From assembly GCA_965223705.1 (NCBI GenBank), contig OZ245015.1, forward strand, positions 2,720,001 to 2,784,000: a DNA stretch of 64,000 nucleotides. Direction: 5' to 3'. Shown here piece after piece: positions 41,395-62,722 of the stretch. The position numbers were made by a program, and so were the translations under genes. Position 1 is the stretch's first letter; each line of letters starts with the position of its first letter. This DNA is from Myxococcota bacterium. Its GTDB lineage: Bacteria; Myxococcota_A; UBA9160; UBA6930. The notes beneath the pieces were generated by a model. It did not search any database and had not been told where the DNA came from. It worked only from the letters and a program-made list of their open reading frames with translations.

Positions 41395-41493
41395 GGAAGT
41401 GCTTCCTAGGCTGGTGCCGGGCCCGGACTTCAAATCCGGTGGAGCCTGTGGCGACACGGGCTCGGGGGGTTCGATTCCCCTGCGCTTCCGCCA
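41395..41493 (+). tRNA. selC: tRNA-Sec (anticodon UCA)
   Basis: 8-bp acceptor GGAAGTGC/GCGCTTCC, anticodon arm CCGGA-CTTCAAA-TCCGG, long variable arm, GGTTCGATTCC T-loop, G discriminator + CCA. Confidence 0.95.
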
Positions 41494-45318: not shown

Positions 45319-45327
45319 GGCGGCGCG

Positions 45328-45510
45328 CTACCAGTCGCCCGATTCGGGCGGTTGGTAGTCCGCGACCTCATCGTGTGCTTCCTCGGTCAGCCAGGAGGCC
45401 GCGAAGCGCTTGAGGACCTGATAGGCGAGCCACAGGCGCTCGTCTACATCGGGCTCGAGAAGCGCTTCCGCCGCGGCGGTCGCTTCCTCCGACAGTGCGA
45501 GCTTACCCAT
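45328..45510 (-). CDS. Small acidic hypothetical protein (60 aa)
   Basis: Protein-like composition; follows the 77-aa ORF after 15 bp; converges on the TBDT stop. Confidence 0.45.
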   Translation of the reverse strand: MGKLALSEEATAAAEALLEPDVDERLWLAYQVLKRFAASWLTEEAHDEVADYQPPESGDW

Positions 45511-45525
45511 GGAGCGCGAGGGGCC

Positions 45526-45759
45526 TTACGACGCCTCGCCGATCCGATCGCAAACGTCCTGACCGCTCTTCGAGAGCCAGGACGCCTTGTGACGTCCGAT
45601 CAGAGACAGGGCCGCCAGCAGACCTTGATGGCCTAGGCCTTCGAGGATGCTCACGAAATGATCTTGGGCCGCGCGCAGCATGTGCTGAGCTTCGTCGATC
45701 TTGCGATGGGCTTCGCTCAGGAGTTGCTGGTCTTCTTGAATCTTCTCTTGGGTCGCCAT
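45526..45759 (-). CDS. Small helical hypothetical protein (77 aa)
   Basis: ATG 45759 MATQEKIQEDQQLLSEAHRKIDEAQHML..., coiled-coil-like. Confidence 0.5.
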   Translation of the reverse strand: MATQEKIQEDQQLLSEAHRKIDEAQHMLRAAQDHFVSILEGLGHQGLLAALSLIGRHKASWLSKSGQDVCDRIGEAS

Positions 45760-45871
45760 GACTGTCTCGTCGGCCGACTCGCACCCAAACTTTTGCACGG
45801 AGTTCAGCGCTCGACGAACCGGCAGACTTTTATCGGGGAGCGGCAATTTTCGGCCTGGGCGGGACACGCCG

Positions 45872-45970
45872 GCCTGCATCGCGGGCCCTCCGCCAGCGCG
45901 GTTCGGGTTTGCGGGTCCGGAGCCGCGCAGCTCAGGGGGTTGAGCGCCCGGGAGCCTCCGCGATGCAGGC
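45872..45970. ncRNA. Candidate structured RNA / inverted-repeat element
   Basis: Perfect 13-bp inverted repeat gcctgcatcgcgg (45872-45884) / ccgcgatgcaggc (45958-45970) enclosing two further hairpins. Confidence 0.4.
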
Positions 45971-46056
45971 GCAGCCTGTTGCGCGGGAGTGAGCCAAACA
46001 TCGACCGGGAGGGTCAATCCTTGCCGCCCGGAACGGGAGTTCCCAATCCATCCACA

Positions 46057-46734
46057 TCAGCCGAACCCGTCGAGAGCTCCCGGAACCGCGTGGGAAGAGA
46101 AGAAGACCCAAAGCGTCTCTTTGAAAATCTCCTCCTCGGAGAGGCCTTCCTGCTGGCACCAGCGCAACCGGAAGGGATGCACCAGCGCGAAGAACGTGCG
46201 CACGATGGCGCGGGTGGAAGGCTCGGGCTTGCAATGCCCTTGTTCCTTGCAACGGTTCACGATCCAGCCGGTGAAGCGGAGCACGTCCTCGTTCCGAACG
46301 GCGTCCTGCAGGTACTCGGGAACGTCCTCCGGGAAGCAAACCTGGACGGCGAGCCGACCGTAGCGGCGGACCTGTGCGAAGCCTCGCTCCGCCCACCGCA
46401 CCATCATCTCCCGACCGTCTTCGAGCTTCTGGATCTTCTGGGCGTCTTCGTACACTTCGAGCGCCATCTGCTCGACGACTTCCCGGACGAGGGCGTCGCG
46501 CCCCGGATAGTGCCGGTAGAACGTCGAATTGCCGATGCCAGCAGCTTCGGTGAAGTCCCGTAGATCTGCGTCCCAGCCTTTGTCGGCGAGCACGTCGATC
46601 GCGCAGTCGCGGATGCGTAGTCGGGTCAGCTCCGCCCGGGTGGACCCCGGGTTCGTCTTGCGCAACGCGGCGTTTTCGCGCTCGAGTTCTTCGATCCGCT
46701 GCTCGAGTTCCCGTCGGTTGGGGCGGGTCACCAT
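46057..46734 (-). CDS. TetR/AcrR-family regulator with N-terminal coiled coil
   Basis: TRLRIRDCAIDVLADKGW...EAAGIGNSTFYRHYPGRDALV HTH. Confidence 0.88.
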   Translation of the reverse strand: MVTRPNRRELEQRIEELERENAALRKTNPGSTRAELTRLRIRDCAIDVLADKGWDADLRDFTEAAGIGNSTFYRHYPGRDALVREVVEQMALEVYEDAQKIQKLEDGREMMVRWAERGFAQVRRYGRLAVQVCFPEDVPEYLQDAVRNEDVLRFTGWIVNRCKEQGHCKPEPSTRAIVRTFFALVHPFRLRWCQQEGLSEEEIFKETLWVFFSSHAVPGALDGFG

Positions 46735-46806
46735 GTATTGTTGCCTCAGTCCGGGTTCCACCCGCCGATTCTGCGCGACGGGCCGCCGGAATGGAAGCCC
46801 GTCGGG

Positions 46807-47973
46807 TCAGTAGGATTTCGGGAGGCCCAGGACCCGCTCGGCCAGGTAACAAAGAATGAGCTGCGGGCTGACCGGCGCCAAGCGGTGGATCAACACTTCG
46901 CGGAGATAGCGCTCCACGTGATGCTCCTTGGCGTAGCCCATCCCCCCATGGGTCATCACGGCATTGGTGCACGTTTCAAACGCCGCTTCTGCGGCGAGGT
47001 ATTTCGCGGCGTTCGCTTCGGCGCCGCACTCCTCGCCGAGGTCGTAAAGCCCCGCCGCCTTCATCACCATCAAGTTCGCCGCTTCGAGCGCTGCCCAGTT
47101 CGCGGCCAACGGATGCTGAATGCTTTGGTTTTGCCCGATCGGGCGATCGAACACGACCCGCTCGCGGGCGTAGTTTGTCGCCCTCTTGAGGGCGACCCTC
47201 CCGAGCCCGACGAGGCCGGCCGCGATCAAGATGCGCTCGGCGTTGAGCCCGGACAAGAGGTAGCGAAAACCGCGGCCCTCCTCGCCGATGCGGTGTTCGA
47301 CGGGGATCGGCAACCCCTCGATAAACAGCTCATTGGAGTCGACTGCGTTCCGACCCATCTTCTCGATCTTCCGCACGTCGACGTACTCGCGATCGAGATC
47401 GGTATAGAAGAGCGACAGGCCGTCGATCGGTCGCTCCGTTTCTTCGATGGGTGTGGTCCGCGCGATCAGGAGAATCTTGTTCGCGACCTGGGCCGTCGAG
47501 ATCCAGACCTTCTCTCCGTGGACGATGTAGTGGTCGCCGTCGCGAACGGCGCGCGTTTTCAGGCGCGTCGTGTCGTGGCCCGTGTTCGCTTCCGTGACGC
47601 CGAAGCACGCGATGTCGTCTCGGCGGATGATGCGCGGCAGCCACGCTTTCTTTTGTTCTTCGCTCCCGTGATGGACGATCGGCGATACGCCGAAGATGCC
47701 GATGGCGACGGCGGAGACGCCACTGTTCGCCGCGCCCGATTCCGAAATCGCTTGAACCACCAGCGCCGCTTCCGTCGTACCGAGGCCGCTGCCGCCGTAA
47801 GCCTCGGGGATCGCGGTTCCAATCCAACCGCCGTCGGCGAGGGCACGGCAGAGCTCTTCTGGGAAACGCCCATCGGCATCGCGATCGAGCCAGTACTGAT
47901 CATCGAAGCGAGAGCACAATTGGAGCACGCTCTCCCGAATCTGCTGGTGTTCTTCGCTGAGCCAGAGGTTCAC
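46807..47973 (-). CDS. Acyl-CoA dehydrogenase
   Basis: GTG 47973 NLWLSEEHQQIRE; IPEAYGGSG; FGVTEANTGHD; YARERVVFDRPIGQNQ; THGGMGYAKE. Confidence 0.95.
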   Translation of the reverse strand: MNLWLSEEHQQIRESVLQLCSRFDDQYWLDRDADGRFPEELCRALADGGWIGTAIPEAYGGSGLGTTEAALVVQAISESGAANSGVSAVAIGIFGVSPIVHHGSEEQKKAWLPRIIRRDDIACFGVTEANTGHDTTRLKTRAVRDGDHYIVHGEKVWISTAQVANKILLIARTTPIEETERPIDGLSLFYTDLDREYVDVRKIEKMGRNAVDSNELFIEGLPIPVEHRIGEEGRGFRYLLSGLNAERILIAAGLVGLGRVALKRATNYARERVVFDRPIGQNQSIQHPLAANWAALEAANLMVMKAAGLYDLGEECGAEANAAKYLAAEAAFETCTNAVMTHGGMGYAKEHHVERYLREVLIHRLAPVSPQLILCYLAERVLGLPKSY

Positions 47974-48117
47974 GGGCGCTCCTTCCCTCGATGAAGCCTC
48001 GCGCGATCGCGGCGAGGGCAACCGTGAGAATCTTGGGTTCTCGCTTCGAATACAAGGCCTCTTGTGGTCCAATTGCCCAATGTCAGCCGGCGACGCGTTG
48101 TTTTTCGAGCCGATCCG

Positions 48118-49173
48118 TTGAGCTTTCAGGTCACCGTCGAGCCGCTGGGCGAGATCCTCGAGGTCGAAGAAGGCCAGACCATCCTCGACGCCGCCTTGCG
48201 GGCGGGCGTCGCCCTCCCCTACGCGTGCAACCACGGCCTCTGCGGCACATGCAAGGTCGACGTCCTCGAAGGCGAGGTCGAGCACGGCGAGGCTTCGGCT
48301 TTCGCGTTGATGGACGTCGAGCGCGACGAGGGGAAGTGCCTCACCTGTTGCGCCCGGCCCCGAAGCGACCTCGTGATCGAGGCCGATGTCGAAGAGGAGC
48401 CCGACGCGCAACGGCATCCGGTGGCGGACCACCGGGCAACCGTCGTCGAGATCAGCGATCTGACCCCGACCGTGAAACGCGTACGGCTCGAAACGGAACG
48501 CCCCTTGGCGTTCCAGGCGGGGCAGTACATCAACCTGAGGGTGCCGGGGGACGAGGTACCGCGCGCCTTCTCCCTGGCCAACGCCCCGGGCGAGGCGCAG
48601 CTCGAGCTGCAAGTGAGGCTGGTTCCCGGCGGCAAGGGCACGACCTGGATTCACGAAGAGCTCGCCGCCGATACCTCGGTCTCCTTCACGGGCCCCTTGG
48701 GCCGATTCTTCGTGCGCCGAAGCCTCCCCGGAAAGCGACTGTTTCTCGCCGGTGGGTCTGGGTTGTCGAGCCCGAAGTCGATGATTCTGGCGCTCCTGGC
48801 CGCGGGGGAGTCCGCGCCGATCGAGTTGATCCACGGGGTGAGAACGAGGGAGGAACTCTACGACGACGAGCTGTTCCACGACCTCGCCGCGGACCATGAG
48901 CACTTTACCTACACCCCCGCGATCTCCGACACGGCAGGCGACGGCTTCGCGGGTGCGCGGGGGATGGTCCACGAGGTCGCGGACGAGCGCTTCGGTGGTC
49001 GCTTTGAGGACATGGTGGCGTACCTCTGCGGTCCCCCGCCGATGATCGATGCCTGCTTGACGACCCTGATGCGGGGGCGGTTGTTCGAGGAAAGAATCTT
49101 CACCGAGTCTTTTTTCACCGCCGCCGACGCCGAGCGTCCGCCTAAGCGGAGTGCGCTCTTCAAGAAGTTCTGA
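48118..49173 (+). CDS. dmpP: Phenol hydroxylase reductase (P5; 2Fe-2S/FAD/NADH)
   Basis: LPYACNHGLCGTCK...CC, FQAGQYINL, RAFSLAN, AGGSGLSSPKSMI, YLCGPPPMIDAC, C-terminal RSALFKKF; probable TTG start. Confidence 0.92.
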   Translation: MSFQVTVEPLGEILEVEEGQTILDAALRAGVALPYACNHGLCGTCKVDVLEGEVEHGEASAFALMDVERDEGKCLTCCARPRSDLVIEADVEEEPDAQRHPVADHRATVVEISDLTPTVKRVRLETERPLAFQAGQYINLRVPGDEVPRAFSLANAPGEAQLELQVRLVPGGKGTTWIHEELAADTSVSFTGPLGRFFVRRSLPGKRLFLAGGSGLSSPKSMILALLAAGESAPIELIHGVRTREELYDDELFHDLAADHEHFTYTPAISDTAGDGFAGARGMVHEVADERFGGRFEDMVAYLCGPPPMIDACLTTLMRGRLFEERIFTESFFTAADAERPPKRSALFKKF

Positions 49174-49179
49174 CCGATA

Positions 49180-49195
49180 TTGATCATTTGAGCAC
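49180..49195. promoter_or_regulatory. XylR/DmpR-type upstream activating sequence
   Basis: TTGATCATTTGAGCAC, 13/16 match to the TTGATCAATTGATCAA dyad. Confidence 0.6.
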
Positions 49196-49231
49196 ATGAA
49201 ACCGACGAAACAACTGGAGCGTCGCCCGCGG

Positions 49232-49248
49232 TCGGAACGCAGCTTGCA
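49232..49248 (+). promoter_or_regulatory. Sigma-54 (-24/-12) promoter for dmpKLMNO-catA
   Basis: TCGGAACGCAGCTTGCA: GG (49234-35)-N10-GC (49246-47) with TTGCA. Confidence 0.7.
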
Positions 49249-49285
49249 CAGCAGATGCTGGGTCGACCTACTCTTCGGGAGAGCG

Positions 49286-49525
49286 ATGGGGCAAACTTCG
49301 GGGGTGCCGGCTGTGTCCCAGCGGGGAAGACATTCAGAACCGACCGAACGCCGCTACGTCCGGGTGACCGGAGAGCGCCGGGGCTTCGTCGAGTTCGAAT
49401 TTTCGGTGGGAGACCCCAGCGTGGCGCTCGAGATGATCCTTCCCGCCGAAGCCTTCCGGGAGTTCTGTCGGGAAAACCGGGTGCGGTTCCTACGGGAGAG
49501 ACGAGACGATGTCGATCGAGATTAA
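49286..49525 (+). CDS. dmpK: Phenol hydroxylase assembly subunit (P0)
   Basis: RYVRVTGERRGFVEFEFSVGDPSVALEMILPAEAFREFC; ATG 49286 with GGGAGAG RBS downstream of the promoter. Confidence 0.88.
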   Translation: MGQTSGVPAVSQRGRHSEPTERRYVRVTGERRGFVEFEFSVGDPSVALEMILPAEAFREFCRENRVRFLRERRDDVDRD

Positions 49526-50510
49526 GACGGCGACCACGGAGCCGCTCCGCACGACCTTTGATCATTTACGGGATCGGCTCGGCGAGGGGAAGACCCCGAG
49601 CCGCTATCAGGAAGCCGTCTTCGACCTTCAGGCGACGCTCAACTTCCACTACCGCCCGACTTGGGCGCCGGATTCGGCGCTGTACGATCCGGGGCTCACC
49701 GCGATCCGGATGGATGATTGGGATCAGCTCACCGACCCGCGCCAGTACTACTACGCGACCTACGTGATGGCCCGGGGGCGTCAACAGGACTCGCAAGACA
49801 AGAACTTCAGCCTCGTCGAGGACAAGAAACTCTTGGCGGGGCTCGACGCCGACGGGCGAGAGCGCTTGACGGAACTCACCGTCCCCCTCCGACACGCCGA
49901 ATGGGGCGCCAACCAGGTGAACGTCTACATCGCAGGCTACGGCTCGGGCGCGGCGATGACATCGGCCGCCACCTTCCAGGCCTTCGATCGTTTGGGGAAC
50001 GCGCAGTACCTTTCTCGCCTGGGGCTTCTGCTGGGAGACGGAGCCCCCGACGCGCTCGGTGCCGCCAAGAGCGCTTGGCTTGCGGCCCCCCACTGGCAAC
50101 CCTTGCGTCGGCTCCTCGAGGATCTCCTCGTCGAGAAAGACTGGTTCGAGGCCCACCTCGTGCAGAACTTCCTGCTCGACGGCTTGCTGCACCCCACGAT
50201 CTTCGAAGACTTTTCGGATGCCCTGGCACCCCGGGGCGGCCTCGCCTTTCCGCTGCTCACCGAATTCACCGTGGCTTGGTTCTCCGAGTCGGTGCGTTGG
50301 ACGGACGCCGTCCTGAAGCGAGCGGCGGCGGAGAGCGAGGACAACGCTCGGCAGTTCACCAGCTGGGCTGCGAACTGGACCCCTCGGATACGCGAGGCGG
50401 TAGCCCCGTTGGCGGAGCTGGCGCTGGGAGAAGCCGGCGAGGCCTGCCTCGAGGAGAACTTGGGCGCCCTGAAGAAGCGGGCCGAGAAATGTGGGATCGA
50501 GGTTTCGTGA
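49509..50510 (+). CDS. dmpL: Phenol hydroxylase beta subunit (P1)
   Basis: MSIEIKT...SRYQEA...NFHYRPTWAP...DPRQYYYATYV. Confidence 0.93.
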   Translation: MSIEIKTATTEPLRTTFDHLRDRLGEGKTPSRYQEAVFDLQATLNFHYRPTWAPDSALYDPGLTAIRMDDWDQLTDPRQYYYATYVMARGRQQDSQDKNFSLVEDKKLLAGLDADGRERLTELTVPLRHAEWGANQVNVYIAGYGSGAAMTSAATFQAFDRLGNAQYLSRLGLLLGDGAPDALGAAKSAWLAAPHWQPLRRLLEDLLVEKDWFEAHLVQNFLLDGLLHPTIFEDFSDALAPRGGLAFPLLTEFTVAWFSESVRWTDAVLKRAAAESEDNARQFTSWAANWTPRIREAVAPLAELALGEAGEACLEENLGALKKRAEKCGIEVS

Positions 50511-50785
50511 TGGCGGACAAGGTCTTCATTGCGCTTCAGAACACCGACGACGCGAGGCCGTTGGTCGAGGCGATCCTCGAGGACAACCCGAGTGCCGAAC
50601 TCAGCGAGCTTCCGGCGATGCTGAAGATCGACGCCCCGGGCCGCCTCGTCGTGCGACGGGACACCGTCAGCGAGAAGAGCGGACGCGATTTCGACCTGCA
50701 GGAGATTCACCTGAATTTGATCTCGCTCTCGGGAAACATCGATGAGAGCGACGACGAGTTCGTATTGGCCTGGCACACGGAGTAA
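50510..50785 (+). CDS. dmpM: Phenol hydroxylase activator (P2, MmoB/DmpM)
   Basis: MADKVFIALQNTDDARPLVEAILEDNP...NLISLSGNIDESDDEFVLAW. Confidence 0.93.
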   Translation: MADKVFIALQNTDDARPLVEAILEDNPSAELSELPAMLKIDAPGRLVVRRDTVSEKSGRDFDLQEIHLNLISLSGNIDESDDEFVLAWHTE

Positions 50786-50787
50786 CG

Positions 50788-52314
50788 ATGGCAACCAAGC
50801 GGCTTCCCCTTCGCGAGAAATATCAGCACCTGACCCGCGGGCTCGACTGGGAGACGACCTACCGCTCGATGGACGAGGTCTTCCCGTACGACACCTACGA
50901 GGGGATCAAGATCAAAGATTGGGATCGCTGGGAGGACCCCTTCCGTCTGACGGTGGACGCCTACTGGAAGTACCAGGCCGAGAAGGAACGCAAGCTCTAC
51001 GCCATCCTCGACGCTTTCTCACAGAACAACGGCCACCTGAACCTTTCGGACGCCCGCTACCTCTCCGCGGTGAAGCTGTGGATCCAGGGGATCACCCCCC
51101 TCGAGTACGGCGCGCATCGAGGCTTCGCCCGCATGGGGCGCGCGTTCCGCGGCGCCGGAGCGCGCGTCGCGTGTCAGATGCAGTCGATCGACGAGCTGCG
51201 CCACGCCCAAACCCAGCTCCACGCCTTCAGCCACTACAACAAGTACTTCAACGGCATGCACCAATGGGTGCACATGCGCGACCGCGCCTGGTACCTCTCG
51301 ATTCCGAAGTCTTTCTTCGAAGACGCGATGACGGCGGGACCCTTCGAGTTCGTCACCTCGATCTCGTTCGCCTTCGAGTACGTCCTGACGAACCTCCTCT
51401 TCATGCCCTTTGTGTCCGGCGCCGCCCACAACGGTGACATGGCCACCACGACCTTCGGGTTCTCGGCGCAGTCCGACGAATCCCGCCACATGACCCTCGG
51501 CCTCGAGGTCGTGAAGTTCATGCTCGAGCAGCACGAAGACAACGTGCCCATCGTCCAGGGCTACCTCGACAAGTGGTTCTGGCGCGGGTACCGCCTCCTG
51601 GTCCTCGTGGGGACCATGATGGACTACATGCTGCCGAAGAAAGTGATGTCCTGGCAGGAGGCCTGGGAGATCTACTGGGAGGAGAACGGAATCGCCCTCT
51701 TCCACGACTTGGGCCGCTACGGGATCGAGCTTCCGAAGCACCATGAGGTTGCGACGAAGGAAAAAGGCCGCGTGACCCATGAAGCGTGGGCGACGCTCTA
51801 TTCCTTCCGCAACGCCACGGGCTTCCACAGCTGGATTCCGGAGACCCATGAGCTCGACTGGATGTCCGAGAAGTACGGGAGCCTCTTCGACGAGCTCTAC
51901 CGACCGCGGCTCGAGCACTGGCGCGGGCTCGAAGAAGCTGGCACTCCCTTCTTTGGTAACGTGCTGCCCCTGGTCTGCCAGACTTGTCAGATCCCCGATT
52001 TCTTTACCGAGCCCGACGACCCGCGCAAGCCGTGCGTGCGCGAAACGCAGTACCGCGGCATGCACTTCACGTTCTGCTCCGACGGCTGCAAAGACATCTT
52101 CGAGAACGAGCCTGAGAAATACGTCCAGGCCTACATTCCGCCCCAACAGATCTACCAGGGCAACTGCGGCGGGGCGAAGGACATCGCCGAATACGCGAAG
52201 TGGCTGGCGCTCGAGATGGGTGTCGACACCGGCGGATTCGAGGGCTCGCCGGATGCCGAAAACTGGAAGCGCTGGCGCGGCGGCGAAGCTTCTGGCGAAG
52301 GCGCGGCGGCGTAG
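50788..52314 (+). CDS. dmpN: Phenol hydroxylase alpha subunit (P3, di-iron, YHS)
   Basis: WEDPFRLT, QSIDELRH, QSDESRH, CQTCQIP, FCSDGCKDIF. Confidence 0.96.
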   Translation: MATKRLPLREKYQHLTRGLDWETTYRSMDEVFPYDTYEGIKIKDWDRWEDPFRLTVDAYWKYQAEKERKLYAILDAFSQNNGHLNLSDARYLSAVKLWIQGITPLEYGAHRGFARMGRAFRGAGARVACQMQSIDELRHAQTQLHAFSHYNKYFNGMHQWVHMRDRAWYLSIPKSFFEDAMTAGPFEFVTSISFAFEYVLTNLLFMPFVSGAAHNGDMATTTFGFSAQSDESRHMTLGLEVVKFMLEQHEDNVPIVQGYLDKWFWRGYRLLVLVGTMMDYMLPKKVMSWQEAWEIYWEENGIALFHDLGRYGIELPKHHEVATKEKGRVTHEAWATLYSFRNATGFHSWIPETHELDWMSEKYGSLFDELYRPRLEHWRGLEEAGTPFFGNVLPLVCQTCQIPDFFTEPDDPRKPCVRETQYRGMHFTFCSDGCKDIFENEPEKYVQAYIPPQQIYQGNCGGAKDIAEYAKWLALEMGVDTGGFEGSPDAENWKRWRGGEASGEGAAA

Positions 52315-52324
52315 GCGCGGAGCG

Positions 52325-52687
52325 ATGGCGGTCAAGCACCTCGGCGATTCGTACGATTTCCCGCCGGCGAACGCCGTCGAGAACTACGGCGGCGCCATCA
52401 ATCTCTACTTCGTCTGGGAGGACCACCTCCTCTTCACCTGCCCGATGGCGGTCCCCGTGCCTCCGGACATGCCCTTCCGCATCTTTGTGTCAGATGTCAT
52501 GAAGCTCTGTTACGCGGCGCATCCGGATTTTGAGAAGATCGACTGGGCCGCCGTAGAATGGACTCACGAAGGGCAGGACTGGAAACCGGATTTCGACGCT
52601 ACCCTTGTCGAGAACGGTTTGCACCATATGTCCTACTTTAAGTTCCGCACCCCGGGCCTCGAGGGCCTGGACGATCGAAAGATCTGA
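52325..52687 (+). CDS. dmpO: Phenol hydroxylase gamma subunit (P4)
   Basis: WEDHLLF...PPDMPF...HPDFEKIDW...FRTPGLEG. Confidence 0.9.
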   Translation: MAVKHLGDSYDFPPANAVENYGGAINLYFVWEDHLLFTCPMAVPVPPDMPFRIFVSDVMKLCYAAHPDFEKIDWAAVEWTHEGQDWKPDFDATLVENGLHHMSYFKFRTPGLEGLDDRKI

Positions 52688-52698
52688 GAGGAGAGACC

Positions 52699-53442
52699 AT
52701 GGCCGAATCACGCGCAGCGGCGATCACCCGCGACCTCATCAAGGCGTTCAACGACATTGTCGCCAAACACAACATCACCCATGCGGAGTATCGCGCGGGG
52801 ATCGATTTCATCGGCGAAGCGGTCGCCAAGGGCGAGCAATCGTTGCTCCCCGACGCGTTCCTCGAGGCCGACGTCGTCGCTCACGATGCTCTGGCACAGC
52901 AGGGAACGTTCAGCCAGGTGCTCGGGCCCTACTACCTGCCGGATGCTCCCTGGCTCGAGAACGGCCAACTTGCGAGTGCGGATGAGCCCGGCGACCGCCT
53001 GGTGTTGCACGGCATCGTGCGGGGTACCGACGGGAAGCCGCTCGAGAATGCGGTTCTCGATTTCTGGCAGTGCGACGCGAAGGGCGCCTACTCGAACTTC
53101 AACCCCGGCACGAAGGACGGCAATCTGCGCGGTCGGATGAAGAGCAACAAGGACGGCAGCTACGAACTCCATACGGTGGTTCCCGCCGCCTACACGATCC
53201 CGCATGAAGGTCCGACGGGCAGGCTCCTGAATGAGCTGGGACGGCACCCCTGGCGCCCGGCCCACATCCACCTGCTCGCCTCTCACGATGGCTTCCGGCC
53301 GCTCACGACGCAGATCTACTTCGAGGGCGATCAGTACCTCGATTCGGACGCGGTGGGAGCAGCTCGGCCGGAGCTTTCCATCGCGCTCAAAGGCGGCGGA
53401 GACAAGACGGCCGAGTTCGATATCGAGCTCGAAGCCGCGTGA
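52699..53442 (+). CDS. catA: Intradiol catechol/chlorocatechol 1,2-dioxygenase
   Basis: LGPYYLPDAP, DFWQCDAKGAYS, YTIPHEGPTG, WRPAHIH, LTTQIYF; compact 247 aa. Confidence 0.9.
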   Translation: MAESRAAAITRDLIKAFNDIVAKHNITHAEYRAGIDFIGEAVAKGEQSLLPDAFLEADVVAHDALAQQGTFSQVLGPYYLPDAPWLENGQLASADEPGDRLVLHGIVRGTDGKPLENAVLDFWQCDAKGAYSNFNPGTKDGNLRGRMKSNKDGSYELHTVVPAAYTIPHEGPTGRLLNELGRHPWRPAHIHLLASHDGFRPLTTQIYFEGDQYLDSDAVGAARPELSIALKGGGDKTAEFDIELEAA

Positions 53443-53449
53443 AACCCAC

Positions 53450-53482
53450 ACACGACGGCGTCCCTGAACGGCGCCGTCGTGT
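53450..53482. terminator. Hairpin between convergent catA and rdhA
   Basis: acacgacggcg / cgccgtcgtgt perfect 11-bp stem; no strong U tract. Confidence 0.55.
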
Positions 53483-53490
53483 ATCGCCCC

Positions 53491-55689
53491 CTAGCCTCGG
53501 CCCGCTCGCTCTCGGTAGGCCGCCATCCCGAGCTTCCGATCCGGAGGCGTCGGCGGATCGTCGGGCTTCGGCTGAAGCTCCGGGGGATAGCACGCGAGCT
53601 TCTGATCCGTCGGTTGTTCGCGGAAGTTGAGCTGCCGCGCGTTTACCCGCTGCGCGGGGACGAGATTGCCCTCTTCGTCGGAGTCGATATCCCACCACCA
53701 CTTCTTCACGGGGTTGATCCGGCCGTTCCCGACCTTGTCATCGAGCTTCGCGATCCACTCGCGTGTGAAGGGCAGCTTCATCGCCGACCACAAGAACGGA
53801 CGCTCCGGGAGGATGCCCTCGAGGTTAAACGGGCAGGTCTTCATGCAGCGGCCGCACATCGATCCCGAAGAGTTCGTGATCCGGTAACGCGCACACTTTT
53901 CGACATCGGGTTTCCAGATCTCATACCCGTTGAACATGATCTTGTCGCCGAAGGGAATCGCCGAGGTCGGGCATTCCCGCGCGCACTTGTTGCAGCGATT
54001 GCAGAAATCCTGCAGTCCGAAATCGATCGGCATGTCGGGCGCGAGCGGCATGTCCGTCGTAATGATCCCGGACTTGAAGCGAGGACCGACAAAGGGGTTC
54101 AGCACGAGTTCACCGATCCGGGCGAGCTCGCCCAGACCCGCGAGCAGAATGAGCGGGATGTGCAGAACGTCCTGATCGATCACGCTGTGGCCCCGAGCCG
54201 AGAAGCCCAGCCGGCGCAGTTGATCCGCGACGACGCCGCCCACGAGCTGAGCCCGCATGTAGGCGCGCATGCTTTGCGCGCCGGAGATCCAGTCGTCGCC
54301 GCTGCCGCCCTCCATCGTTTCGTAGCCCTGATCGACCAGGATGGCGATGCCATACTTGTGGTAGGGCTTGATCTCCGAACCGTCGGTGTCGTGGGAATAC
54401 CACGCGTAGTCGGGCACCTCACAAATCCCGACCATATCAGCGCCCATATAGTGGAGGGCCGCCTTCACCATCTTCGCGTTCTTCACCGGATCGTCGTAGC
54501 CGGGCGCGATCTCGTGCGCCTCTTTCCCGTACTGAAGCGGCACCATGCCGCCGAGCACCGGGATCATCGCGTGCCCAAACGGCGATTTGGTGATCATTCG
54601 AAAGTTGTCGAGCTCGTGCTTCGCCTTGTCGCCGAGATCTCCGATCGCCGCGCGCAAGAACATGTCCGCACGCTTCGGATTGCGTTTCACCTGCTCGGGC
54701 TCGATGTGCGTGGTGGGCTTCTCGACCCGGTCGACCTTCTCCATCGGGTAAAGGCCCATGTGAAACGGTCGGTCGCGGAAGAGCCGGCCTTGATAACCGG
54801 CCCGCGCGCCCCCGTAGCCGAGCCACCAACCGGGACCGTGCGCCTTCCATCGTTCCGCAACGTCGCGTCGCGCGAGGGCTCCGTCTGGCTCGAGGGCGAG
54901 GGTTGTGGTCACGGCGACGACGCCGAAACCCGCGCCGAGATACGGGCTCACCACGTCGCCAGCGTCGCCCAGCTCCCCGAGTCCGGAGGCCAGTAGGAGA
55001 GCCTCGAGATCGACCTCTGTCGCGGTGCCCGTATGCAACGTCGCGTCGTAACCGAGAAAGCGCAGGTAGTTGGAGACGACGGCCCCCACCTCGGCTGCTC
55101 GGAGCGCTGCGCGCTGCGCTTGGGTTCCGACGATCCAGGGACCGCCGGGCTCGTCCGGATCGGGACGGCGCGTGTACTCCGCGAGGATGACGAGTGACGA
55201 GACGTGCGACGAGAGATCATCGGTGGCCTGCTGCTCTCGCGCCCACGCACCCCGACCCTCACGGACACTCGCTTCGGCCATCACGTTCTCGGCAGAGCCC
55301 GCCGCATATTCCTGCGACACAGCCAGGGCGAGCGACTCGTTCACAATCGGATCGGCGAGGATGGCTCGTGACGGAAGCCCGCAGACACCGGCCATGCTGG
55401 CGTCGAGGTAGTAGCAAGCCGCCTTCAGGTGGGCAGCGCGTTCTCCTGGGTCCTCGGGAATGGGACCGGTTTTCGGCGCCACCGGGCCGCGACGCATCCG
55501 GTCCATGATGTCGATGTAGGTACGCATCGAGTTGGCGAGTGCTGCCGGGTTCTCCGGGTCCTCGATGGAGAGTGCCGGGCGCCGCTTCTCAATTCGCGAG
55601 GCGCCTCCGTCGTCCGGGAGGCGGGCCAGGCGTTCGAGCGGATACGGACCGAGATGGACCGGACGTTTTCGATGAGAGAACATGCGCAT
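53491..55689 (-). CDS. rdhA: Catabolic (NpRdhA/BhbA-type) B12-dependent reductive dehalogenase
   Basis: MRMFSHRKRPVHLGPYPLERLAR start; duplicated B12-domain architecture; SGAQSMRAY; GELVLNPFVGPRFKS; FCNRCNKCARECP and CARYR...CGRCMKTCP Fe-S motifs; KKWWWD; no Tat signal. Confidence 0.92.
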   Translation of the reverse strand: MRMFSHRKRPVHLGPYPLERLARLPDDGGASRIEKRRPALSIEDPENPAALANSMRTYIDIMDRMRRGPVAPKTGPIPEDPGERAAHLKAACYYLDASMAGVCGLPSRAILADPIVNESLALAVSQEYAAGSAENVMAEASVREGRGAWAREQQATDDLSSHVSSLVILAEYTRRPDPDEPGGPWIVGTQAQRAALRAAEVGAVVSNYLRFLGYDATLHTGTATEVDLEALLLASGLGELGDAGDVVSPYLGAGFGVVAVTTTLALEPDGALARRDVAERWKAHGPGWWLGYGGARAGYQGRLFRDRPFHMGLYPMEKVDRVEKPTTHIEPEQVKRNPKRADMFLRAAIGDLGDKAKHELDNFRMITKSPFGHAMIPVLGGMVPLQYGKEAHEIAPGYDDPVKNAKMVKAALHYMGADMVGICEVPDYAWYSHDTDGSEIKPYHKYGIAILVDQGYETMEGGSGDDWISGAQSMRAYMRAQLVGGVVADQLRRLGFSARGHSVIDQDVLHIPLILLAGLGELARIGELVLNPFVGPRFKSGIITTDMPLAPDMPIDFGLQDFCNRCNKCARECPTSAIPFGDKIMFNGYEIWKPDVEKCARYRITNSSGSMCGRCMKTCPFNLEGILPERPFLWSAMKLPFTREWIAKLDDKVGNGRINPVKKWWWDIDSDEEGNLVPAQRVNARQLNFREQPTDQKLACYPPELQPKPDDPPTPPDRKLGMAAYRERAGRG

Positions 55690-55699
55690 GAGCGAAAAC

Positions 55700-58174
<2,475 letters not shown>

Positions 58175-58178
<4 letters not shown>

Positions 58179-58522
58179 CCTCGGGCTTCCTCCTGGGTGG
58201 TCGATGGGCAAGTCCGTTGGCAACGGGCAAAGGAACGGTCGCACGCCATGGTGTCGTGGCCCCTCGAACGGCAGCGCGTTCGGATTCGCGTGCACGACGC
58301 CTCGCAGGAGTCCCCCGACGCGCAGGATTCGAGGCACGCTCGGAGCTCCTCGACGCAGATCCCGCCGGAGTCGCGCGTACATCCGCGAAAAACCGTCTGG
58401 CAGCGCGGTTCGCAAGTCGATCGACCGGATGATGAACCACCGGGCGCCGGTGCGCAGCCGAGGGCGACCAGGACGCACAGGACGCCGCGACCGAAAAGAC
58501 GGTACCCGCCCCGCGCACTCAC
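58175..58522 (-). CDS. Small cysteine-rich lipoprotein (115 aa, 12 Cys after the lipobox)
   Basis: GTG overlaps the pcaF TGA and its TGA overlaps the CMD ATG; lipobox LVALGC; two CX3CX6C-Xn-CX6CX3C modules. Confidence 0.75.
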
Positions 58523-59724
58523 ACCGCTTCGAGGGCTATGGCTATGCCCTGGCCGACGCCGATGCACATCGTCGCCAGCGCGAGCTTTTCTCCCCGCTCC
58601 TTGAGCTCGAGCGCCGCGGTCCCGACGATGCGCGCGCCGGTCATTCCGAGCGGGTGTCCCAAGGCGATGGCGCCACCGTTCGGATTGACGTGCTCGGCGT
58701 CGTCCGGGAGGCCGAGCTCGCGCAACACCGCAAGGCCCTGACTCGCGAACGCCTCGTTGAGCTCGATCACGGAGAAATCCGAGGGCTTTAAAGACAGCCG
58801 CTCGCAGAGCTTTTGCGTCGCCGGCGACGGCCCGATGCCCATGACGCGCGGAGGGACACCCGCCGCCGCGCCGCCCAACACCCGCGCGATGGGCGTGAGC
58901 CCGTGCTTCGCGGCGCCGGCCTCTGACGCCACCACCAACGCCGCCGCGCCGTCGTTCACGCCCGAGGCATTTCCCGCGGTGACAGTGCCCGGTTGTCGGA
59001 AAGGCGTCGGCAGCTTCGCCAGCTGTTCGGCCGTCGTGTTCGGTCGCGGGTGCTCGTCGCTGTCCACCACACGCGGCTCTCCTTTTCTGACCGGAACCGT
59101 TACGGGGGTGATCTCCAAGGCGAGTCGGCCCGAGCCCGCGGCGCGTCCCGCCTTGTGTTGAGAACGAAGGGCGAACGCGTCTTGGTCGGCGCGGGAGACG
59201 GCAAAATCTTCGGCGACGTTTTCCCCCGTCTCGGGCATCGAGTCGACCCCGTACTGCTTTTTGAGCACCGGGTTGATAAAGCGCCAACCGATAGTGGTGT
59301 CGTAGATCTCGGGATTTCTCGCGAAGGCCGTCTCGGCCTTGGGCATCACAAAGGGAGCGCGTGACATGCTCTCGACTCCCCCGGCCACGGCGAACTCCGC
59401 TTCGCCGGCGCGAATCGCCCGCGCGGCGGTCAGCAGCGCATCCATCCCGGATCCGCACAACCGGTTGATCGTTCCGCCGGGAATATTCTCCGGTAGTCCG
59501 GCCAACAGCAGTGCCATGCGCGCGACGTTTCGATTGTCTTCCCCCGCCTGATTCGCGCAGCCGTAGAGCACGTCGTCGAGAGCTTCCCAGTCGACGCCCG
59601 GATTGCGCTCGAGCAGTGCGCGCAGCGGGATCGCGGCGAGGTCATCCGTACGCACCGAAGACAGCACACCACCAAAACGGCCAATGGGGGTGCGGATGTA
59701 GTCGCAAATGAAGGCTTCCGGCAT
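58519..59724 (-). CDS. pcaF: 3-oxoadipyl-CoA thiolase
   Basis: GCANQAGEDNRNVARMA, NRLCGSG, YDTTIGWRFINP, GGAIALGHPLG, TMCIGVGQG. Confidence 0.93.
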   Translation of the reverse strand: MPEAFICDYIRTPIGRFGGVLSSVRTDDLAAIPLRALLERNPGVDWEALDDVLYGCANQAGEDNRNVARMALLLAGLPENIPGGTINRLCGSGMDALLTAARAIRAGEAEFAVAGGVESMSRAPFVMPKAETAFARNPEIYDTTIGWRFINPVLKKQYGVDSMPETGENVAEDFAVSRADQDAFALRSQHKAGRAAGSGRLALEITPVTVPVRKGEPRVVDSDEHPRPNTTAEQLAKLPTPFRQPGTVTAGNASGVNDGAAALVVASEAGAAKHGLTPIARVLGGAAAGVPPRVMGIGPSPATQKLCERLSLKPSDFSVIELNEAFASQGLAVLRELGLPDDAEHVNPNGGAIALGHPLGMTGARIVGTAALELKERGEKLALATMCIGVGQGIAIALEAV

Positions 59725-59740
59725 GGCATTCTCCAGAGGG

Positions 59741-60502
59741 CTAGCGAGACGCTTCGCTCCGCGCGTGGAGCTCGCGAAGAACTCCGAGTTCCTCGGGGCT
59801 CGCCGGCGGCGTCTCGGCGAGATCGCTTGCGAAGCGAACGTCCCAACCGACGGTTTCGGTGACCGCCTCGCGCGTCACGCCGGGGTGAAGCGAGGTCACG
59901 CAGAATTCCTTGGTCTCCGGATCGGGCTCCCAGAGCGCCAGGTCCGTGATGAGGCGCGTCGGGCCGGCCGTGGTCAGGCCGTGTTCTCGGCGGTCTCGTC
60001 CACCGCGGCCGTGTCCCATCGACGTGACGAAGTCGATTTCGCGCACGAAGCCTCGGGTCGACTGCTTCATCGTGATGAAGATCTCATGGCAACACGAAGC
60101 GATCTCGGGAGCACCGCCGCCGCCGGGAAGACGCACGCTCGGGCTCGCATAGGGACCGACAACGGTCGTGTTGATATTGCCAAAGCGGTCGAGCTGCGCC
60201 GCCCCGAGAAAGCCCACGGTCACGTGCCCGCCCTGCAACCAGTAGCGAAACATCTCGGGGACCGAGACCGTCGTCAGAGCCGTGTCACACAGCTCCCCGT
60301 CGCCGATCGAAAGCGGCAGAACGCGGGGCTCGGTCCCGATGGTTCCGCTTTCGTAGATCAGGGTGATTCCCGGCGCGTGCGTCAACCGCGCGAGATTGCA
60401 CGCCGCTGACGGCGCGCCGATGCCGACGAAGCAGACATCGTCGGATGAAAGCGCCCGCGCGGCGGCGATGGTCATCATTTCGTTCGGCGTCGCGTCGCTC
60501 AC
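59741..60502 (-). CDS. pcaJ: 3-oxoadipate CoA-transferase subunit B (CatJ/GctB type)
   Basis: EMMTIAAARAL, FVGIGAPS, LIYESG, LPLSIGDGEL, RLPGGGGAPEIA. Confidence 0.88.
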   Translation of the reverse strand: MSDATPNEMMTIAAARALSSDDVCFVGIGAPSAACNLARLTHAPGITLIYESGTIGTEPRVLPLSIGDGELCDTALTTVSVPEMFRYWLQGGHVTVGFLGAAQLDRFGNINTTVVGPYASPSVRLPGGGGAPEIASCCHEIFITMKQSTRGFVREIDFVTSMGHGRGGRDRREHGLTTAGPTRLITDLALWEPDPETKEFCVTSLHPGVTREAVTETVGWDVRFASDLAETPPASPEELGVLRELHARSEASR

Positions 60503-61350
60503 GAGCGAAGTCCGCGCACGCGTTCTGCGAAGACCTCGGGCCCGACCTCCAGAACATGCTCTTCCATGTACCGGCGGAACGCGTCCCGGTCGGAAGCCAC
60601 CTTGTCCCACGCGACGTAGGCCGCGTTGTCGCGGTCGTAATAGCCCCGCGCGTAGGACGGGTGGGCACCGCCGGGTACGCAAACGATCGCGCCGACACAA
60701 AACCGGGGCAGCACGCACGCGTTCGGATGCAGTTCATCGAACTCCTCGACGATTTCCTCCACGGTCACGACGTTGCGTTTTGCCGCGAGCACCGTCTGCT
60801 TCTGCACACCGAGGATGCCTTCGAGCAACACGTCGCCGCGGCGGTTCGCTTTCTGCGCGTGGATCACGCCAACATCTGGATTGATCGCCGGGATCGCCGC
60901 AAGCGATTCCCCGGTGAACGGACAGGTCACGTCCCGAATCGTCGGCGTCACCGCGCGCAGACCCGCTCCCACGTAGCCCCGAAAGACGGCGAAGGGCAGT
61001 TTCGCCGCTCCGGCTTCGTACGCGTTGGCCATCGCCGCGTGAGAGTGCTCCTCGATTTCGAGGGCAACCGGCCACTCCTTTTCAACCGCGTCTCGCAACC
61101 GCCGCAGGAGCCCGACGCCGGGATTCCCCGCGTACGAGAAGATCAGCTTCCGGGCGCAACCCGTGCCGATCATCTGGTCGTAGATGAGGTCCGGCGTCAT
61201 GCGAACCAACGTGAGATCGCGCCGCCCTTGACGGATGGTCTCGTGCGCAGCCGCGTGAGGAATGAGGTGCGTGAAGCCCTCGAAGGCCACGCAATCTCCA
61301 TCGCGGATGTTCTCGGCAATGGCCTCGGCGAGCGACTGAAAAACCGCCAT
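60499..61350 (-). CDS. pcaI: 3-oxoadipate CoA-transferase subunit A (CatI/GctA type)
   Basis: EGFTHLIPHAAAHE, RMTPDLIYDQMIG, GNPGVG, GAHPSYARGYYDRDN. Confidence 0.9.
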   Translation of the reverse strand: MAVFQSLAEAIAENIRDGDCVAFEGFTHLIPHAAAHETIRQGRRDLTLVRMTPDLIYDQMIGTGCARKLIFSYAGNPGVGLLRRLRDAVEKEWPVALEIEEHSHAAMANAYEAGAAKLPFAVFRGYVGAGLRAVTPTIRDVTCPFTGESLAAIPAINPDVGVIHAQKANRRGDVLLEGILGVQKQTVLAAKRNVVTVEEIVEEFDELHPNACVLPRFCVGAIVCVPGGAHPSYARGYYDRDNAAYVAWDKVASDRDAFRRYMEEHVLEVGPEVFAERVRGLRS

Positions 61351-61392: not shown

Positions 61393-62286
61393 TCAGCCGA
61401 GCGGCTTCAGGCCGGCGTCCTCCGCACATACGCGACCTAAGCCCGCCCAGTCGAACTCGTGATAACCGCGCGCCAAGGCTGTCAGGAACTGGTCGCGGAC
61501 CAAGCTTCCGAGCGGCATCGGCACAGTGTTGGCTTCGGCAGCGGAGAGCGCGAGCTTCACGTCCTTGAGACCGAGCGGAAGCTTGAAGCCCGCGGGCTCG
61601 TAGGTGTCTCTGGCCACCATCCCGCCGTACGTCTTGTAGACCGGTGCCGGGAAGATGGTGCTGGTCAAGATCTCGAGAAACGCTTCCGGGTCGATCCCGT
61701 AGGTTCGGGTCAACGCGAACGCCTCGCCCAAGCTCTCGCAAAGCGCGGCGAGCATGAAGTTCCCCCCGATCTTGACGATGTTCGCTGCGACCGGGTCCTC
61801 CCCTACGACGAAGTGGCGTTGACCGACCGCCGCAAACGCCGGTTCGCAGGCGGCGATCGCGGTGGGCGACCCCGCCGCGACGACGAAGAGTTGCCCCGCG
61901 GCTGCGGCGGGTGGCCTTCCGAAGACCGGAGCCGAAACATAACCCTGGCCAGCCTTCCCGTGAGCGTCCGCCAACTGGCGTCCCATATCGACACTGATCG
62001 TGGCCATGCAAGCGTGGACGGCGCCGGTCTCGAGCCCCGCCAACACTCCGCGATCGCCGAAGGTCACCGCCTCGGTCGCAGCATCGTCGGCGAGGATGCT
62101 CAAGACAGCCTCCGCTCCGCGACACGCGTCGGCGGGCGTTTCGACCGCGACGGCGCCGTCGTCGACGAGCGCCTCAGCGCGACTTCGGGTGCGGTTGTAC
62201 ACGCGCACCGCGTGACCCGCCGAGAGCAGGTTCCGCACCATGCCCTCCCCCATCGCGCCGACTCCTACGAAACCGAATTGACCCAT
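61393..62286 (-). CDS. NAD(P)-dependent beta-hydroxyacid dehydrogenase family protein
   Basis: GFVGVGAMG, YNRTRSRA, SAPVFGRP, VKIGGNF, GLKDVKLAL. Confidence 0.9.
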   Translation of the reverse strand: MGQFGFVGVGAMGEGMVRNLLSAGHAVRVYNRTRSRAEALVDDGAVAVETPADACRGAEAVLSILADDAATEAVTFGDRGVLAGLETGAVHACMATISVDMGRQLADAHGKAGQGYVSAPVFGRPPAAAAGQLFVVAAGSPTAIAACEPAFAAVGQRHFVVGEDPVAANIVKIGGNFMLAALCESLGEAFALTRTYGIDPEAFLEILTSTIFPAPVYKTYGGMVARDTYEPAGFKLPLGLKDVKLALSAAEANTVPMPLGSLVRDQFLTALARGYHEFDWAGLGRVCAEDAGLKPLG

Positions 62287-62359
62287 GCGAATTGACCTCC
62301 CGGGTAGTCCGGAGCACCCTACCACGCGACTTGAGCGACGCGTTCCCCGAGTCGGTTGG

Positions 62360-62722
62360 CTAGCCCAGAACGAGATGGAGCTTGAGCGCCAGCCCGAGGT
62401 CACCCGACAAGTGAATCCGGCGTTCGAGGAGGGCTCGCGGCGCGGCCAGGCGACCGGCATTCAAGTCGCGCCAGTCACGCACCGACACCCGAACGCGGAG
62501 GTCCGGATTCGCGAGCTTGCCGTTCGTCCCCCGCGCGGCACCGTTCTCGAGAATCACCCCGAACACTCCGCCGCCTTCTCCGACCAGCGTAAATTCGATC
62601 CCCGCCGGTTTTTTCGGAAGCCGCCCGCGCCGGTCCGGATCCGCCGCGACCCGTTCGGGCACCCAGCGACAGAAGAAATCCTCGGGTTCGATGTCCTCGG
62701 GCGGTTTCGCGCGATCGTCCAC
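62360..62722 (-). CDS. SCP2 sterol-binding domain protein
   Basis: FTLVGEGGGVF...PDLRVRV...RIHLSGDLGLALKL; probable GTG start. Confidence 0.8.
   Translation of the reverse strand: MDDRAKPPEDIEPEDFFCRWVPERVAADPDRRGRLPKKPAGIEFTLVGEGGGVFGVILENGAARGTNGKLANPDLRVRVSVRDWRDLNAGRLAAPRALLERRIHLSGDLGLALKLHLVLG

Follow-up and report, generated by a model that had tools for sequence, protein, structure and literature searches.

Which substrates and which electron donors serve the stand-alone catabolic reductive dehalogenases (RdhAs) in the cell is an open question in the field, and a gene cluster from a Myxococcota bacterium raises it in a concrete form. The stretch analysed here, which we call the window, comprises 64,000 nucleotides of contig OZ245015.1 (assembly GCA_965223705.1, positions 2,720,001 to 2,784,000 of the forward strand). 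At window positions 48118..61350 it holds 14 named catabolic genes and one lipoprotein-like open reading frame (ORF), all intact, which encode, among others, an RdhA, a multicomponent phenol hydroxylase (Dmp), an intradiol dioxygenase, a 2-aminophenol dioxygenase (AmnAB) and the PcaIJF enzymes. An earlier note, made from the letters alone, proposed that these genes may mineralise halogenated phenols and aminophenols aerobically. Does the locus encode such a pathway, and how far would it lead? We find the genes to be what they were named, with their catalytic residues intact, and to be physically linked. As to function, we hold, at a confidence only slightly better than even, that they form a lineage-specific upper-pathway module for halophenols, assembled from known enzyme families and ending in ring-opened acids.

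Gene layout and the reductive dehalogenase

The host genome (G000; other G and L labels denote compared genomes and loci) amounts to 4.56 Mb, is 95% complete and consists of a large contig (C1) and a contig of 17 kb (C2). The cumulative GC skew of C1 closes to approximately zero, as expected of a whole chromosome, and C1 is apparently a closed chromosome. The plus-strand unit of the cluster reads dmpP, K, L, M, N, O and the intradiol dioxygenase gene; the minus-strand string reads pcaI, pcaJ, pcaF, the lipoprotein-like ORF, a two-domain carboxymuconolactone-decarboxylase-family (CMD) gene, amnB, amnA and rdhA. Gene content and convergent layout are as first described, with the two units meeting at a 13-pair hairpin (53450..53482; z −3.0, no U tract), and the gaps of the minus-strand string, −4 to +23 nt, agree with the overlaps and spacings within about 25 bp noted before. 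Genome-wide, 55% of the 2727 same-strand gene pairs lie no more than 25 nt apart, so the close packing of this string is weak evidence by itself; runs of at least eight tightly spaced genes number six in the whole genome by automatic gene calls. The hairpin occurs once in the genome and falls outside the set of terminator-like sites, and a stem of equal length is found in 10 of 101 convergent gaps of 20–120 nt in this genome.

Short-read contigs from separate runs, all of one study and possibly of the same sample as the source, span 45000-55554, 51621-57298 and 53432-61282 and thereby cover every junction, so the locus is not an assembly chimera. One contig of run X3 shows an apparent inversion (51363/53541); as GATC stands at either end of it, we read it as a library artefact. 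A selenocysteine tRNA gene lies at window 41395-41489, 6.6 kb upstream of the cluster. We considered a genomic island at this tRNA; composition gives no island signal, since the catabolic genes resemble the host in their GC, GC3 and hexamer scores. On the far side, hydroxyacid dehydrogenase, SCP2 and UvrA-like genes (window 61393-62722, L096 727-3459) lie on the strand of pcaI and lead up to it, the gaps being 42, 73 and 4 nt; the upstream limit of the minus-strand unit is therefore undefined.

The minus-strand gene rdhA (53491..55689) encodes a 732-amino-acid (aa) stand-alone catabolic RdhA of NpRdhA type, and the earlier assignment to the NpRdhA/BhbA enzymes holds: the protein scores 210 bits against TIGR02486 (cut-off 160) and matches PDB 4RAS at E 1e-181. 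The RDH model matches both of its halves, that is, the N-terminal cobalamin-core domain is duplicated, and two Fe–S motifs are found at 563 and 599. There is no TAT motif (no RRxF among the first 60 residues) and no RdhB neighbour; amnA and the dioxygenase gene flank rdhA. Residues S422, Y426, K488 and R552 of NpRdhA, which act in hydroxyl binding and proton transfer according to PMC7565698, are conserved as S473, Y477, K539 and R603. The same paper has A419 lining the pocket for a second halogen and K307 forming a salt bridge with the benzoate carboxylate in one binding mode. The A419 position is Gly here, as in 109 of the 120 nearest homologues, and would leave space for a second halogen; the K307 position is Leu, as in 92 of the 120. 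Both pocket changes (A419G and K307L) would suit uncarboxylated phenols.

No fused C-terminal reductase domain was found in this RdhA, whose alignment covers BhbA residues 1-723 only. Among the 120 nearest homologues, 114 are no longer than 800 aa and, from that length, would lack the fused reductase as well. FastTree trees place the protein inside a large, uncharacterised stand-alone subclade, where its sister is the 85% relative. One named species, Pseudomaricurvus alkylphenolicus, has a 63% homologue.

Might the enzyme act on other substrates, such as halogenated hydroxybenzoates, as BhbA does, or larger brominated natural products, the proximity of dmp being incidental? Characterised relatives use 3,5-dibromo-4-hydroxybenzoate (PMC7565698 and PMC10463259), and the genome is rich in other oxygenases. 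The pocket, however, is unlike that of BhbA, the RdhA subclade tracks dmp genes (see below), and neither full-length PobA nor protocatechuate dioxygenase was found in the genome; BhbB and LigA were likewise not found there. We consider this explanation very improbable.

Phenol hydroxylase and ring-cleavage genes

All six Dmp subunits (K, L, M, N, O and P) are encoded on the plus strand, with their diiron motifs. The reductase gene dmpP (48118..49173; 2Fe-2S, FAD and NAD domains Fer2, FAD_binding_6 and NAD_binding_1; 57% to Variovorax DmpP) stands ahead of the others, a P-first order shared by G100. It is followed by dmpK, dmpL (49509..50510; β subunit, PF02332, 50% to Variovorax DmpL), dmpM (50507..50785; effector, PF02406), dmpN (50788..52314; diiron α subunit, PF02332 and YHS, two DExRH motifs, 67% identical to Variovorax and 89% to G100) and dmpO (52316..52687; γ subunit, PF04663). 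The frame of dmpK is open from 49196, with PF06099 on residues 50-99 of the long form, and the gene probably starts at 49286 (49286..49525): ribosome-site-like bases precede this start, which leaves a 112-nt gap after dmpP that holds promoter-like elements. Elsewhere in the genome lie three more soluble diiron monooxygenase clusters (G000:C1 ~1844000-1850000, 3283800-3287700 and 3298300-3302900), one of which includes genes for a MimD-like effector and a GroEL of its own; their α subunits are 26–29% identical to DmpN.

Two plus-strand elements are predicted ahead of dmpK, a DmpR/XylR-type activator site (49180..49195; 13/16 to consensus) and a sigma-54-type promoter, GG-N10-GC (49233..49248; 10/12), each scored against a presumed consensus sequence; for that of DmpR/XylR, no literature source was found. 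Activator-site matches this good number 20 in the chromosome on both strands. The chance per 450 nt is about 0.1% for the activator site and about 1.3% for the sigma-54-type site. Most control loci that carry dmpR have similar site pairs ahead of dmpK, with roughly 60–100 nt between activator site and promoter, as against 37 nt here. The genome encodes an RpoN-box gene and 16 enhancer-binding-like genes. None of the 16 has an aromatic sensor domain, no DmpR-family activator was found in the genome, and DmpR queries align to other activators solely in the central domain; the one protein with a DmpR-like sensor region (335 aa, G000:C1:1958719-1959726) is without the activator loop motif. Retention of DmpR-type promoter elements in a genome with no DmpR points to an origin of the hydroxylase genes in a DmpR-controlled operon, the activator having since been lost or changed.

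The last gene of the plus-strand unit (52699..53442) encodes an intradiol dioxygenase, which had been read as CatA. The family assignment stands, with Fe ligands Y131, Y165, H189 and H191. The narrower name does not, since the protein lies below all three NCBIfam catechol/chlorocatechol cut-offs (235 < 359, 206 < 404 and 162 < 392 bits). It belongs to an uncharacterised clade of about 60 short environmental proteins, of which the sampled members are monophyletic (support 0.999), and the four ligands and R186 are present in 61 of 61 members. It matches catechol/chlorocatechol chains more closely (E 1e-51) than it does hydroxyquinol chains (1e-42 or weaker), falls outside the branch of the hydroxyquinol-type G080 protein and shares with hydroxyquinol enzymes only the VLGP and DAV features; it does not group with them. 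At positions that we presume to determine specificity, the pocket is mixed, with L49, D52 and A53 as in 4-chlorocatechol dioxygenase and V74, L75 and V219 as in hydroxyquinol enzymes.

On the minus strand, amnA (55700..56518) and amnB (56515..57399) encode the α subunit and the catalytic β subunit of 2-aminophenol 1,6-dioxygenase, both of LigB fold. They are 52% and 79% identical to CnbCa and CnbCb, respectively, and AmnB matches PDB 3VSG at E 8e-166. AmnB residues H14, H63, Y130, H196 and E252 align with their CnbCb counterparts, which we take to be the metal-binding and catalytic residues. According to PMC3790839 and PMC10470539, the AmnAB product cyclises to picolinic acid unless oxidised, a step for which AmnC is not needed; PMC10470539 also describes inhibition of aminophenol dioxygenase during catechol oxidation, so AmnAB would be a poor stand-in for catechol 2,3-dioxygenase. 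Environmental contigs often carry amnBA without an adjoining semialdehyde dehydrogenase (L116, L119-L125, L131, L133), and the orphan state of the genes here is thus not unique.

The remaining minus-strand genes begin with a complete PcaIJF set as used in the catechol ortho pathway: pcaI (60499..61350) and pcaJ (59741..60502) encode the α and β subunits of a CoA transferase of the alphaproteobacterial pca type (72% and 79% to that of one Chelatococcus pca operon), and pcaF (58519..59724) encodes 3-oxoadipyl-CoA thiolase (TIGR02430, 676 > 597 bits; 78% to Chelatococcus PcaF). The CMD protein (57423..58178) matches PF02627 twice, lies below the PcaC cut-off and has a candidate function only. Between CMD and pcaF, a small Cys-rich ORF (58175..58522) has a lipobox-like LALGC, a repeated six-Cys pattern, atypical codon use and, in a single-sequence model, four helices. 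It has no family match and only Atlas leads with scores of at most 0.85, one contig of run X3 carries a one-base insertion within it at 58430, and it is probably unrelated to catabolism.

Linkage in other genomes and the missing downstream steps

At the thresholds applied, rdhA, amnB, dmpN and pcaI were found in none of 60 close relatives, and across 225 class genomes including the host, amnB and pcaI occur in one each, CMD and dmpN in two, rdhA in four and dioxygenase-like genes in six (five of the host clade). Parts of the arrangement recur. G100 holds dmpP-K-L-M-N, in the same rare order, beside the dioxygenase gene, and a 6280-nt contig labelled Myxococcales carries consecutive genes for an 85% RdhA relative (NNL85168) and a catechol dioxygenase (NNL85169), the latter in the protein cluster of an 81% homologue. 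The nearest homologues of the host RdhA and CatA are thus the ones labelled Myxococcales.

The linkage is also seen in a distant lineage. In G227, a gammaproteobacterium with one of the nearest GTDB homologues of the RdhA, dmpR-KLMNOPQ, catechol 2,3-dioxygenase and dmpCEFGH run on the same strand into rdhA. Its family comprises 126 genomes, 23 of which hold an RdhA of the subclade (at least 62% identical); DmpN is present in 21 of these 23 carriers, as against 8 of the other 103 genomes. Flanks were fetched for 19 carriers, that is, all save G227 and three on short contigs: dmp meta-pathway genes lie no more than 20 kb upstream of rdhA in 18, and an intradiol dioxygenase gene, hydroxyquinol-like by motif in the two that were translated, lies downstream in 15. 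The whole hydroxylase is encoded within 21 kb of rdhA in G227 and in G264; in the latter, rdhA is flanked by dmpK and dmpR and the dmp string ends in amnBA, the whole taking up no more than 28 kb. Genes for dmp also adjoin amnBA in G260, L117 and L118. The RdhA subclade thus co-occurs with and adjoins phenol-catabolic genes, once together with amnBA, in support of the order of dehalogenation, hydroxylation and cleavage first suggested. As to the conservation of the modules, rdhA–dmp linkage, the triad of G264 and rdhA–catA adjacency recur; the full combination is not conserved, its gene order having no other occurrence among the genomes and loci compared. Many genomes of the G227 family have a second short RdhA paralogue at 47–52%, and one has five matches.

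Truncated, unfused RdhAs require redox partners, and reconstitution with the redox genes next to NpRdhA failed (PMC10463259). DmpP is the only reductase that the cluster encodes, and a complex prediction for RdhA and DmpP scored 0.00, which is evidence neither way.

Several observations weigh against a working halophenol module. No small ferredoxin-like gene was called within 60–70 kb of the cluster. The cobalamin synthase CobS was not found in the genome; a B12-dependent MetH is encoded within the window, and cobamide is presumably scavenged. The dmpK promoter may be silent for want of DmpR. None of 80 GTDB rdhA loci has hydroxylase subunits or amnAB within 10 kb, in a set made up mostly of self-sufficient RdhAs, with a limit that missed the G227 hydroxylase 17–21 kb off and queries that lacked dmpF/G/H, so that those genes in L008 were missed. 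None of 17 metagenomic amnA loci, many of them short, holds rdhA. Of the 15 cases in the G227 family where hydroxylase and rdhA are on one contig, 13 have the two 153 kb to 2.1 Mb apart, and most carriers share one inherited layout; these genomes are kin, and they represent few independent arrangements rather than 21.

A rival explanation is a patchwork, in which aromatic modules were acquired separately and came to lie side by side without forming one pathway, some of them possibly decaying. The modules differ in their nearest relatives and in their spread within the class, an unrelated lipoprotein-like ORF breaks up the string, and signs of decay may be seen in dmp without its activator (with an activator site unusually near the promoter), amnAB without a lower pathway and pcaIJF without a feeder. 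In both same-genus genomes (46% GC), moreover, the dioxygenase gene lies at a different locus, after genes for a hydratase, a PanE-like reductase and an amidohydrolase, and the host keeps this trio at G000:C1:4487310-4490138 (4.49 Mb), 59–80% identical to the same-genus copies. Against this, the catabolic frames are intact with host-typical codon use, the rdhA–dmp–amnBA triad was assembled independently in G264, and the adjacency of rdhA and catA recurs. We regard a patchwork as unlikely, if a serious contender.

How far would a functional module lead? The claim of mineralisation finds no support here, as the steps from ring cleavage to PcaIJF and those beyond AmnAB were not found in the genome. 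For muconate cycloisomerase, TIGR02534 and six reference queries revealed none in the genome, PF13378 finds enolase only, and our own profile, which detected four of four control loci, revealed none when run unfiltered against 36,616 ORFs. PcaB (best 184 < 356 bits), a fungal-type lactonase (PF10282) and maleylacetate reductase were not found in the genome either; the sole candidate for the last, at 4.458 Mb, is an iron alcohol dehydrogenase, which we discarded because it shares 28–34% identity with four reductases that are mutually 40–57% identical. Possible candidates for muconolactone isomerase are two unlinked MIase-domain genes (45–48 bits), and for the enol-lactone hydrolase PcaD a partial query gave a best match of 35%. 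The AmnC-H/DmpC-H lower pathway was not found at the locus and has no convincing orthologues in the genome: the best semialdehyde dehydrogenase (485 < 693 bits) is a member of an hpa cluster, the best matches are 27–31% for DmpE/H, 27–30% for DmpG and 30–35% for RidA, and DmpF and the tautomerase have none. In the 60 kb downstream of the window, no missing pathway gene was recognised, save an unlinked MIase-domain gene and a nitroreductase gene.

One way to close this gap is a route, so far unrecognised, by which the intradiol product would reach 3-oxoadipate without CatB and maleylacetate reductase, with the CMD protein or the amidohydrolase/PanE-like/hydratase trio as candidates. An otherwise purposeless intact pcaIJF would find its use, and in none of the four other genomes with the dioxygenase clade (75–91% complete) does a cycloisomerase reach the cut-off (best 98 vs 335 bits). 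The CMD orthologue occurs in only two of the 225 class genomes, the host and G099, each time near a dioxygenase gene of the clade; the order in G099 is dienelactone hydrolase, dioxygenase, CMD, with CMD facing the dioxygenase gene, and three pairs of CMD and dioxygenase protein clusters, one of them G099, match in exact longest-contig size where about 0.3 would be expected. Such matches in size are, however, indirect, G100, G001 and G002 hold the dioxygenase without a CMD orthologue, this PcaI is present in none of the four other carriers, and we know of no chemistry for such a step. The amidohydrolase beside the same-genus dioxygenase does not correspond to any known lactonising enzyme; among solved structures, its best relative is PtmU3. 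We think such a complete pathway rather improbable. The bolder proposal that builds on it, to which we give an equally low probability, makes the cluster the start of an aerobic route for natural bromophenols that would be widespread and so far undescribed. In this route, a stand-alone RdhA subclade acts with a multicomponent hydroxylase, possibly with electrons from DmpP, and the new dioxygenase clade and CMD reach 3-oxoadipate without cycloisomerase or maleylacetate reductase.

For the upper-pathway module that we favour, the gene products suggest the following course. A cytoplasmic, oxygen-tolerant B12 RdhA would remove halogens ortho to the phenolic hydroxyl, for example from 2,6-di- or 2,4,6-tribromophenol, with the help of scavenged cobamide and of a redox partner whose gene lies elsewhere. 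The Dmp hydroxylase would convert phenol or 4-halophenol to catechol, the new-clade dioxygenase would open the resulting catechol, and AmnAB would open (halo)aminophenols in parallel. With the known downstream steps absent from the genome, products would, by known chemistry, stop at (halo)muconates and picolinates, and the outcome would be transformation, detoxification or a supply to partners, in place of proven mineralisation. PcaIJF would be a separately acquired terminal module, its supply of 3-oxoadipate unexplained. The front half of the halophenol reading is plausible and now has comparative support. A subclade of more than 100 RdhAs that follows phenol-catabolic genes across two distant lineages offers a concrete substrate class for these enzymes, and the cycloisomerase gap beside intact pcaIJF in a closed chromosome is a defined pathway hole: either the cell detoxifies without growing on the substrate, or it has a new enzyme.

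Elsewhere in the genome, the 23S rRNA gene (L106 5154-9146; G000:C1 ~1193154-1197146) is about 1 kb over model length and contains a group I intron match (L106 7889-8120). The 17-kb contig C2 matches C1 near 3.39 and 3.65–3.68 Mb, with a 2.6-kb stretch at 99.8% and several at 75–79%, and is possibly a mobile element or a strain variant.

Comparison with known systems

Each part of the cluster has a described counterpart. As in the catABC-pcaDIJF and clcABDE ortho pathways, an intradiol dioxygenase is combined with PcaIJF; in contrast to them, the host dioxygenase forms its own clade (at most about 44% to plasmid-borne relatives) with a mixed pocket, and CatB/ClcB and maleylacetate reductase are missing. 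The cnb/amn clusters of Comamonas CNB-1 (pCNB) and Burkholderia LB400 (PMC3790839) share AmnB and AmnA, whereas the host locus has no dehydrogenase, deaminase, decarboxylase or hydratase gene of this pathway. The dmpKLMNOP operons with DmpR of Variovorax and Acinetobacter plasmids share the six subunits (43–67%) and promoter elements before dmpK; the host differs in having dmpP first and in that no dmpR, dmpQ, catechol 2,3-dioxygenase orthologue or dmpF was found.

The RdhA resembles NpRdhA of Nitratireductor pacificus pht-3B (PDB 4RAS, 6ZXU; PMC7565698) in being stand-alone and cytoplasmic, in its duplicated N-terminal domain and two Fe–S motifs, and in the Ser/Tyr/Lys/Arg set. Its pocket differs by A419G, K307L, P311R (where the local alignment is ambiguous) and N452V. 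The NpRdhA gene adjoins genes for a ferredoxin reductase and two ferredoxins (PMC10463259), whereas host rdhA adjoins phenol hydroxylase and ring-cleavage genes. In the open-access literature, supplements excluded, we found no description of the full combination, in line with the earlier note, nor of a linkage of the stand-alone RdhA subclade with dmp or amnAB (including the accessible parts of PMC6922536, PMC12219181 and PMC13101508).

The closest parallel in logic is the bhb cluster of Comamonas sp. 7D-2 (pBHB), which likewise dehalogenates, hydroxylates and cleaves aerobically. BhbA, to which the host RdhA is 46% identical, carries a fused reductase domain and supplies PobA and LigAB with substrate, whereas the host RdhA has no fused domain. 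Every enzyme of the host cluster is of a known family, and BhbA already shows dehalogenation followed by oxidation. What appears to be new is a defined gap before PcaIJF and, upstream of it, a stand-alone RdhA subclade that gene linkage ties to multicomponent phenol hydroxylases and AmnAB.

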